Both the position numbers and the translations under genes were made by a program. Shown here piece after piece: positions 1,172 through 27,340 of a stretch of DNA of 64,000 bases (the stretch's first letter is position 1; every line of letters begins with the position of its first letter). A model generated the notes under the pieces. It was not told where the DNA came from. It ran no database searches and saw only the letters and a list, made by a program, of their open reading frames with translations. The stretch comes from Promethearchaeia archaeon. Lineage in GTDB: Archaea; Asgardarchaeota; Lokiarchaeia; Sigyniarchaeales; SOKP01. The stretch covers positions 50,449-114,448 of the forward strand of contig JAHQWH010000193.1 of assembly GCA_029856105.1 (NCBI GenBank), read 5' to 3'.

Positions 1172-1335
1172 GGCTCGGAGGGGGATTTTCATACTGCTGA
1201 TAAATTCAACAATATATTGAACCCCCCTTTCCCCAATACAAGAGAATTCCCTTGTATTTCTAGGGATTCACAGTGGGGATTCTCGAAAGAACCTCAAGAT
1301 TTGTCCCCAATACTAACCACTATACGACCCGAGCC
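1172..1335 (-). tRNA. tRNA-His(GUG) with three introns (1273-1302, 1229-1259, 1186-1215)
   Basis: Removing three BHB-flanked inserts gives G-GCTCGGG TC GTAT AGTGGTTA GTAT T GGGGA CTGTGAA TCCCT AGAG GGGGG TTCAATT CCCCC TCCGAGC C. This is a cloverleaf with anticodon GTG at 1271-1269 and the His identity pair G-1:C73. CCA is not encoded. Confidence 0.92.
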
Positions 1336-1354: not shown

Positions 1355-1362
1355 TTATAAAA
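1355..1362 (-). promoter_or_regulatory. Putative TATA box of the tRNA-His gene
   Basis: TTTTATAA on the minus strand, 20-27 nt upstream of the tRNA 5' end. The background is AT-rich. Confidence 0.45.
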
Positions 1363-26039: not shown

Positions 26040-27340
26040 GCGAAAAAGGAAAAGAGCTATATGAAAAAGTAAAAGAAAAGATAGAACAATTAAACGATAA
26101 AGATTCAGTCTACAGCAAGTTTGGAGATATCTGGAAGCTAGCAAGCTTAGGTAAGTATCGTTCCTTCGATTTACGATATCTTTACGAAGATACTAGTAGA
26201 GAATTTGTTGAAGAACACAAAGAACATCTTACCAAAATACGTGAAGATTTCGTTGAAAATATTGATGACTATGTAAAAAAATGCATAGATGTGATGCGTA
26301 AGACTAATAAATTTAAGGTTTATTACGCCAAAACAAACGAGGAAGCCCAAAAAATTTTTATGGAAGAGTTAGGAGATAATAAAGTTTTATACAAATCAAA
26401 ATCTTTGGAAGCAAAGGATATAGGAATAATTGATGTTTTAAAGAAAAATAATATAGAAATTAAAGAAACAGATTTAGGCGACGTCCTATGCCAACTATTT
26501 GATTACAAATATCCAAGTTTCACCTTAGCTCCTGGAGTTCAATTTACTGAAAAAGAAATCGTCGCAAAAATGAAGGAAAAATATGGAATAGATATAGAGG
26601 AGAAAGCAGAAGCAATAGTAGCCTATTACCGGAAGAATTATCGCCCAGAATTACTTAATGATGTTAAGGTTTCTCTTACATCAGCTAATGTAATTGCTGC
26701 AAATGATGGTTCTATCGTTCTAATTGAGAATGAAGGAAATATTAGTCTCTTAACTAGGGCGACTGAGAAACACATCGTTGTAGTAGGAATACAAAAAATC
26801 GTTCCAAATGTTTTTGATGCTCTAATTGTAGCTAAATTACATGAGAGAATAAATAATGTAGATGGAGCTTATATTAGTTTTATATCCGCGGCATCAAATA
26901 CTTCCGATATTCAAGGAAAGCGTGTATTTGGGATGTATGGTGCGAAAGAAGTAGTTATAATATTTGTAGATGACTGGAGAATTAAAGCAGCAAAAGAAAA
27001 TCTATTTTATAAAGATATTCTAAAATGTATCTCATGTAAAAGTTGTGATTATGTATGCACAGCTTCTCGAGCATTTGGTAATATCTACGCATCAAAATAC
27101 GGTATTGGAGCAATAAATATCGTTCGAGATTATATTCATAATGGAATCGAAGCTGCTGTTAAAGATGGTTTATTCTTATGTACAGGTTGCGAAAATTGTA
27201 CGAATTGGTGTCCTGTGGGAGTTGATTTAGCAGAAATCATGAAAAAACTTAAAAAAGAAGCTACTGAAAAAGAGCTTTGTCCTCCTTCGTTAAAAGAATA
27301 TAAAGAAAAAATATTCAGAGATAAGAACCCATTCATTTAA
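26036..27340 (+). CDS. LUD-domain Fe-S protein (LutB-like)
   Basis: KSKS, ETDLGD, IENEGNI and two 4Fe-4S motifs (CISCKSCDYVC, CTGCENCTNWCP). ATGA overlap with the upstream gene. Confidence 0.88.
   Translation: MSEKGKELYEKVKEKIEQLNDKDSVYSKFGDIWKLASLGKYRSFDLRYLYEDTSREFVEEHKEHLTKIREDFVENIDDYVKKCIDVMRKTNKFKVYYAKTNEEAQKIFMEELGDNKVLYKSKSLEAKDIGIIDVLKKNNIEIKETDLGDVLCQLFDYKYPSFTLAPGVQFTEKEIVAKMKEKYGIDIEEKAEAIVAYYRKNYRPELLNDVKVSLTSANVIAANDGSIVLIENEGNISLLTRATEKHIVVVGIQKIVPNVFDALIVAKLHERINNVDGAYISFISAASNTSDIQGKRVFGMYGAKEVVIIFVDDWRIKAAKENLFYKDILKCISCKSCDYVCTASRAFGNIYASKYGIGAINIVRDYIHNGIEAAVKDGLFLCTGCENCTNWCPVGVDLAEIMKKLKKEATEKELCPPSLKEYKEKIFRDKNPFI

Follow-up and report, generated by a model that had tools for sequence, protein, structure and literature searches.

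In Nanoarchaeum equitans, tRNA-His is split into two trans halves joined at 37/38, with EndA cleavage at a BHB-like motif and an encoded G-1.

Among Asgard archaea, Valentin-Alvarado et al. (2024) reported introns in 92-95% of the tRNA genes of Atabeyarchaeia and Freyarchaeia, often several per gene and at non-canonical sites (PMC11291895). A 2026 preprint covering 90 Asgard genomes described (i) up to five insertions per gene, (ii) many insertions missed by tRNAscan-SE, (iii) BHB enrichment at the boundaries, with repeated gains, and (iv) two EndA paralogues in most genomes (bioRxiv 10.64898/2026.10.13.758758). An earlier interpretation of the present locus, made from the letters alone and referred to below as the sequence-only reading, had placed multi-intron tRNAs chiefly in Thermoproteales, a view outdated by their publication for Asgard archaea (PMC11291895; bioRxiv 10.64898/2026.10.13.758758).

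A tRNA-His gene in four pieces

The window, the whole stretch of 64,000 nucleotides that was analysed, belongs to a 238-contig MAG of 3.66 Mb (31.9% GC, 92% complete, 6% contaminated). Read directly, positions 1335-1172 of its minus strand display four GC-rich exons alternating with three AT-rich hairpins, and the segment is confirmed as a real tRNA-His gene in four pieces with three short introns at unusual positions. The gene sits within a 353-nt gap separating two minus-strand ORFs and comprises, with its flanking signals:

1355..1362, minus strand: TATA-like box TTTTATAA, 20-27 nt upstream of G-1; candidate archaeal promoter, position read from the sequence
1303..1335, minus strand: exon 1, with G-1, the acceptor 5' strand, the D arm and the anticodon-stem 5' strand to C32; supported by the sequence and the ARAGORN tRNA-His call on the spliced product, and the same in three close species
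1273..1302, minus strand: intron 1, 30 nt, site 32/33
1260..1272, minus strand: exon 2, U33-G45, with the GUG anticodon and the anticodon-stem 3' strand
1229..1259, minus strand: intron 2, 31 nt, site 45/46
1216..1228, minus strand: exon 3, A46 and G48-U59, with the T-stem 5' strand and T-loop nucleotides 54-59
1186..1215, minus strand: intron 3, 30 nt, site 59/60
1172..1185, minus strand: exon 4, U60, the T-stem 3' strand, the acceptor 3' strand and C73
1143..1148, minus strand: T6 run, 24-29 nt past C73; candidate oligo-T terminator, read from the sequence

A sigma-70 promoter and intrinsic terminator scan of the locus is uninformative for an archaeal host.

The spliced exons add up to 73 nt and are called tRNA-His(gtg) by ARAGORN, with a normal cloverleaf comprising acceptor (7 bp), D (4 bp), anticodon (5 bp) and T (5 bp) stems. 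The anticodon G34 U35 G36 occupies 1271-1269, CCA is not encoded at the 3' end, and the variable loop is 4 nt long with position 47 absent. The intron coordinates given by the sequence-only reading, with lengths of 30, 31 and 30 nt at 32/33, 45/46 and 59/60, are right to the nucleotide, and the encoded G-1 and C73 that it described are read at 1335 and 1172, opposite each other. U33 to A38 run uninterrupted in the anticodon loop, so that the canonical 37/38 intron is absent, as had been stated. G15 and G48, which the same interpretation took for an unusual feature of this gene, are both present; G48 is common to most relatives and represents a lineage trait.

On unspliced DNA, neither ARAGORN nor Rfam reports anything at the locus, bearing out the suspicion that default scans could miss the gene. 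An Rfam search of positions 1000-1500 with E up to 10 returns only meaningless matches (Brucella sRNA, trypanosome rRNA), and no self-splicing intron family matches at the locus. Genome-wide, ARAGORN reports 23 tRNAs (several doubtful) and Rfam 20 above threshold, with tRNA-His in neither set; without the present gene, the genome thus appears to lack tRNA-His. The intact tRNA-His elsewhere that the sequence-only reading had considered as counter-evidence is found by none of ARAGORN, Rfam and exon BLAST in the 92%-complete assembly. Since the MAG is incomplete, a second tRNA-His could lie on the missing DNA; it is very probable, however, that the genome has no tRNA-His(GUG) gene other than 1335-1172.

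Relatives, exact junctions and splice motifs

Orthologues came from two sources, 40 related genomes searched at the DNA level and the GTDB species collection, where a 23-nt tRNA-His pattern matched 43 records. These comprise 42 Asgard-type MAGs, 34 of them titled Promethearchaeota, Promethearchaeia, Hod-, Hermod- or Thorarchaeota and eight 'uncultured archaeon', and one record titled Nanopelagicaceae bacterium. Promethearchaeia, the NCBI class name (former Lokiarchaeia) for the group with Promethearchaeales and Helarchaeales, is the title borne by members of the same genus; the tRNA-His sequences of the same-genus genomes G002 and G014 equal those of ABR04 and ABR11, which bear this title. Judging from these labels, the description of the host as an Asgard-type genome in the sequence-only reading appears correct. 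Spliced alignment against a panel of explicit references yielded 45 distinct Asgard tRNA-His genes with 91 introns, all 45 sequences keeping the GUG anticodon and the G-1/C73 pair. As a side observation, a three-intron tRNA-His of Asgard type on contig L051 (DATKTW010000051.1), whose title is 'Candidatus Nanopelagicaceae bacterium', equals the one of the same-genus genome G011; the contig or the entire bin is probably mislabelled or misbinned.

The same-genus genome G007 (L009) encodes an intron-free tRNA-His of 73 nt; its seven differences from the predicted product are confined to the acceptor and T stems and preserve base pairing. The Rfam score is 57.4 bits for this gene, 59.1 bits for another intron-free orthologue and 44 bits for an orthologue with one intron. 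The close relative G005 (L003), with flanks 92-96% identical to those of the window, retains intron 1, bears an extra 15/16 intron and lacks introns 2 and 3; across both missing-intron sites its sequence is identical to the predicted spliced exons, which leaves a single possible junction for intron 3 and two equivalent placements for intron 2.

All three introns also occur in two other species, 33X4 (L002/L059) and CSMAG_2258 (L066), with 0/73 differences in the exons. The intron differences fall in loops or bulges or keep pairing, the latter comprising (i) compensatory replacement of A-U by G-C in L066, both at i7/i20 of intron 2 and at i3/i23 of intron 3, and (ii) a G-C to G-U change at i6/i20 of intron 3. 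Exon identity combined with pairing-preserving intron changes is the pattern that would be expected of a functional gene with introns constrained in shape.

These comparisons bear on the reading of the locus as a dead or dying tRNA-His pseudogene, inactivated by three hairpin insertions, with histidine decoding left to a copy missing from the assembly. Such a reading would suit a MAG that is only 92% complete and a gene to which default tRNA finders are blind; it is very unlikely given exons 100% identical in four species with flanks differing by 4-8%, the compensatory changes in the intron stems, and the lack of exon decay in any of the 45 distinct tRNA-His sequences examined. The geometry of the insertions, described next, argues in the same direction, with three of them in exact 3-4-3 BHB arrangement at places where excision restores a perfect cloverleaf.

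According to the BHB rule applied here, the 4 nt preceding the last 2 exon nucleotides pair with the 4 nt preceding the last 2 intron nucleotides, leaving 3-nt bulges that are each cut after the second nucleotide. The rule agrees with the canonical intron geometry, where the central helix includes anticodon positions 34-35 and the bulge contains 37/38 (PMC4090602), and with the unambiguous junction of intron 3. All three introns display a 3-4-3 BHB, with a 4-bp central helix and two 3-nt bulges on opposite strands (cuts marked by hyphens):

Intron 1: G27-G30 paired with CCCC (GGGG/CCCC); bulges AC-A and AC-U; inner hairpin of 7 pairs; outer helix 2/4 pairs
Intron 2: C40-U43 paired with GGGG (CCCU/GGGG); bulges AG-A and AA-A; inner hairpin of 10 pairs; outer helix 1/4 pairs
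Intron 3: U54-A57 paired with UGAA (UUCA/UGAA); bulges AU-A and AA-U; inner hairpin of 8 pairs; outer helix formed by the T stem, 4/4 scored

The central helices, bulges and intronic stems proposed from the letters alone are all found as described. Intron 3 represents a strict hBHBh' site and stands alone in having a complete outer helix on the exon side. Introns 1 and 2, each of which holds one strand of the anticodon stem, belong to the relaxed HBh' type, and their weak exon-side helix would make them dependent on an enzyme of relaxed specificity.

With the junctions fixed, an equal BHB arises by chance in 0.22%, 0.006% and 0.014% of 200,000 intron shuffles for introns 1, 2 and 3, respectively, and the three probabilities (2.2e-3, 6e-5 and 1.4e-4) multiply to ~2e-11. 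The idea that AT-rich hairpins beside GC-rich patches merely mimic a tRNA draws on the abundance of BHB-like hairpins in this AT-rich genome (345,177 genome-wide candidates under loose criteria). Against that product of shuffle probabilities, and against orthologues with 0 to 4 introns whose intron-free members are recognised by Rfam at 57-59 bits, its probability is negligible, and the orthologues effectively refute it.

The precursor folds with a minimum energy of -69.8 kcal/mol, compared with a shuffle mean of -43.7 (z = -6.6). A fold with all three BHB motifs present simultaneously is valid and nested, the motifs occupying separate nucleotides, and has an energy of -56.9 kcal/mol, 13 kcal/mol above the unconstrained minimum, in which some pairs around the bulges are moved. 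Three placements of intron 1, two of intron 2 and one of intron 3 give the same mature product.

A real interrupted gene with other junctions or another mode of removal, for example with intron 1 at 30/31 or 31/32 or with ordered splicing, could be drawn from these alternative placements, from the weak outer helices of introns 1 and 2 and from the local departure of the minimum-energy fold from the ideal BHB. Only the 32/33 and 45/46 placements produce a 4-bp helix with flanking 3-nt bulges, however, and for intron 1 the choice of 32/33 follows from the BHB rule alone. All equivalent placements lead to one mature product, and intron 3, with its single placement, obeys the same cut rule. The capacity of the three motifs to coexist speaks against ordered splicing, and the lack of a self-splicing family match in Rfam against a different mechanism, leaving little probability for readings of this type. 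It is highly probable that 1335-1172 is a functional tRNA-His gene that would be spliced at exactly the junctions listed above.

Splicing enzymes and other interrupted tRNA genes

The genome encodes RtcB (558.8 bits) and two proteins with the tRNA-intron endonuclease catalytic domain PF01974 (98.5 and 72.3 bits):

L021:1171-1773: alpha-like EndA, 200 aa, aligning to the A. pernix catalytic subunit (3P1Z_B) over residues 26-200, E 3e-34
L022:1210-1815: beta-like EndA, 201 aa, with its best alignment to the M. jannaschii enzyme

In the alpha-like protein, Y141, H149 and K180 align with the A. pernix catalytic triad Y125, H133 and K164, and the equivalents of R157 and W183 are kept. In the Crenarchaea-specific loop, GISKPR aligns without gaps to DVEKPR, with K58 and R60 corresponding to A. 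pernix K44 and R46; the residue roles are those established for A. pernix EndA, in which K44 is required for non-canonical substrates (PMC3241643). The beta-like paralogue displays a Ser at the position of the M. jannaschii catalytic His, keeps the Tyr and Lys, and would fit a structural, non-catalytic beta subunit, as expected. This combination of an alpha-like and a beta-like EndA was reported for Asgard archaea by Kaneta et al. 2018 (PMC5829648), and we infer that the two proteins form a heterotetramer. Typed by sequence, the enzyme would thus belong to the (alpha-beta)2 type with the Crenarchaea-specific-loop lysine, and the broad-specificity endonuclease predicted by the sequence-only reading has a plausible counterpart in this alpha-like protein, with its triad and loop K/R residues, and its beta-like partner.

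In the proposed pathway, a precursor of ~164 nt would be transcribed from the upstream TATA-like box, and the three BHB motifs, which use separate nucleotides, would form together. Introns 1 and 2 would pair with the 5' and 3' strands, respectively, of the anticodon stem, and intron 3 with T-loop positions 54-57, stacked on the T stem. The (alpha-beta)2-type endonuclease would cut past the second nucleotide of each 3-nt bulge and RtcB would join the four exons, after which the 73-nt product would adopt the cloverleaf, in which G-1:C73 serves as histidine identity pair, and receive its CCA. Gene structure, motifs, exact junctions (by way of the relatives) and the presence of the enzyme genes are evident at the level of sequence; we infer that splicing takes place in the cell and that its order is irrelevant. 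The known splicing mechanism is left unchanged by this gene.

The numbers of tRNAs found by ARAGORN and Rfam in 3.66 Mb indicate that roughly half of the tRNA set is hidden from these programs. A simple BHB-removal screen was informative for annotation: BHB-like sites with GC-rich flanks outside long ORFs were selected, all compatible subsets were removed and ARAGORN was run on each variant. This unbiased screen of 42,712 in-silico spliced variants recovers tRNA-His with exactly these three introns, together with about nine or more further loci unseen by ARAGORN and by Rfam at threshold. At seven tRNA loci, the T loop is interrupted at ~58/59-59/60 by a BHB intron of 27-33 nt (intron coordinates on the plus strand):

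C2:3422-3448, T-loop intron
C219:11841-11869, T-loop intron
C191:99915-99944, T-loop intron
C71:6343-6372, T-loop intron
C163:24218-24247, T-loop intron
C34:34619-34649, T-loop intron
C191:97136-97168, T-loop intron

The provisional names of these seven are Gln-CUG, Gln-UUG, Lys-UUU, Arg-GCG (two loci), Met-CAU and Leu-GAG. None of these loci is called by ARAGORN, and only the two Arg-GCG genes pass the Rfam threshold, with 34.6 bits recorded for one of them; the T loop looks like a favoured insertion site in this genome. The screen also yields two-intron candidates for Thr-GGU and Sec-UCA, the latter appearing only once both BHB-bounded segments are removed:

C16, minus strand: candidate tRNA-Sec(UCA), introns at 26802-26841 (40 nt) and 26723-26750 (28 nt)

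For the multi-intron loci on C29, C147 and C153, the isoacceptor names from the screen disagree with direct ARAGORN calls and are provisional. The survey of the other tRNAs, which had been suggested along with the original description of the locus, thus finds ~30-nt non-canonical introns at many loci, and such introns are therefore the norm in this genome.

Two pairs of identical sequences were observed on different contigs, namely the Arg-GCG tRNA with its intron (C71 and C163) and a flagged hairpin with the same frame lengths on both sides (C10:60288-60318 and C26:6540-6570). The assembly probably holds redundant contigs, consistent with the 6% contamination or duplication estimate.

A screen for BHB introns in protein genes found that removal of 279 of 44,444 strong BHB-like hairpins (0.63%) joins two open frames, compared with 0.59% for random position pairs, and that in 52 of the joins (0.117%, against 0.126% for random pairs) both frames reach 100 codons or more; loss of the stop codon and intervening spacer likewise fuses adjacent genes in frame, so the screen cannot discriminate. 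The window's contig contains no long-frame hairpin joins.

Possible intron turnover and comparison with known systems

The 45 distinct tRNA-His genes carry 0 to 4 introns each, distributed over seven sites as follows: 15/16 (2), 22/23 (15), 32/33 (26), 37/38 (1), 45/46 (30), 58/59 (14) and 59/60 (3). The canonical 37/38 intron is thus found in a single gene out of 45. A 4/4 central helix at the junction that restores the exact mature sequence is present in 82 of the 91 introns. The introns are also uniform in length regardless of site or sequence, 89 of the 91 measuring 26-31 nt and most exactly 30.

The 59/60 intron is limited, among the 45 genes, to the window gene, 33X4 and CSMAG_2258, and an intron that is unrelated to it and shifted by one nucleotide, to 58/59, occurs in 14 other genes. 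Within the four genomes sharing 92-96% identical flanks, three display the combination 32/33 + 45/46 + 59/60 and the fourth, G005, the combination 15/16 + 32/33. The tRNA-His locus may well record intron turnover at the species level, for which copying from a tRNA with the same T arm and loss of the 3' introns via a spliced copy are candidate routes. Searches of the genome itself for copies of the three introns (blastn-short, with and without 8-nt flanks) returned chance-level matches only, and copying between tRNA genes of this genome is consequently unsupported.

In a separate observation, the tRNA-Ala(GGC) of the same-genus genome G021 (L020:503-625; G021:C122) contains a D-loop intron and a 30-nt 59/60 intron. 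The latter matches intron 3 of tRNA-His at 19/30 positions, with the same loop GAAUUUA and the same 3' end, and the T-arm sequences of this tRNA-Ala and of the window tRNA-His are the same; the tRNA-Ala intron may be a relative of intron 3 residing in a different tRNA gene. If turnover of this kind is real, before-and-after pairs could reveal how BHB introns enter or leave a gene, a question left open by the 2026 census. As a record of intron history, the series of 45 genes with 0-4 introns at seven sites fixes junctions and documents recent gain or loss.

Compared with the split tRNA-His of N. equitans, the present gene shares the dependence on EndA and BHB motifs and the encoded G-1, but it is one continuous gene with three cis introns.

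The multi-intron tRNAs of Thermoproteales, such as the Pyrobaculum tRNA-Pro interrupted at 25/26, 37/38 and 56/57 (PMC4090602), likewise contain up to three BHB/HBh' introns, and are processed by an (alpha-beta)2 EndA with the Crenarchaea-specific loop, which the protein alignments suggest for this host as well. On the other hand, Thermoproteales constitute a different phylum, and their introns form families shared between tRNA genes, suggesting transposition (PMC4090602), whereas the tRNA-His introns described here lack a detectable paralogue in their own genome and do not include a 37/38 intron. As for the enzyme, the alpha-like protein keeps the counterparts of Y125, H133, K164, R157, W183, K44 and R46 of the A. 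pernix (alpha-beta)2 EndA (PDB codes, 3P1Z and 3AJV; PMC3241643). Unlike in A. pernix, the beta-like partner has its nearest sequence match in the M. jannaschii alpha4 enzyme rather than in a crenarchaeal beta subunit, and the Asgard enzyme is known from sequence.

The phenomenon is already published for Asgard archaea, and the tRNA-His gene fits the published description in every respect, including (i) an Asgard host, (ii) several short non-canonical introns with BHB boundaries, (iii) two EndA paralogues, (iv) genes missed by standard annotators, and (v) repeated intron gain and loss between close lineages. Differences of degree concern intron length, with a published median of ~22-23 nt compared with 30-31 nt in this tRNA-His; the distribution of the heaviest loads, reported in Jordiarchaeia and Atabeyarchaeia, whereas this gene belongs to a Promethearchaeia (former Lokiarchaeia) genus; and detection, the published missed introns lying mostly in the D arm (tRNAscan-SE), whereas in the present case ARAGORN and Rfam overlook the gene altogether. 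What is new is modest and comprises a further Asgard genus with heavily interrupted tRNA genes, which bears the Promethearchaeia label of the Lokiarchaeia class, a gene overlooked in its entirety by ARAGORN and Rfam, and intron turnover at 4-8% flank divergence.
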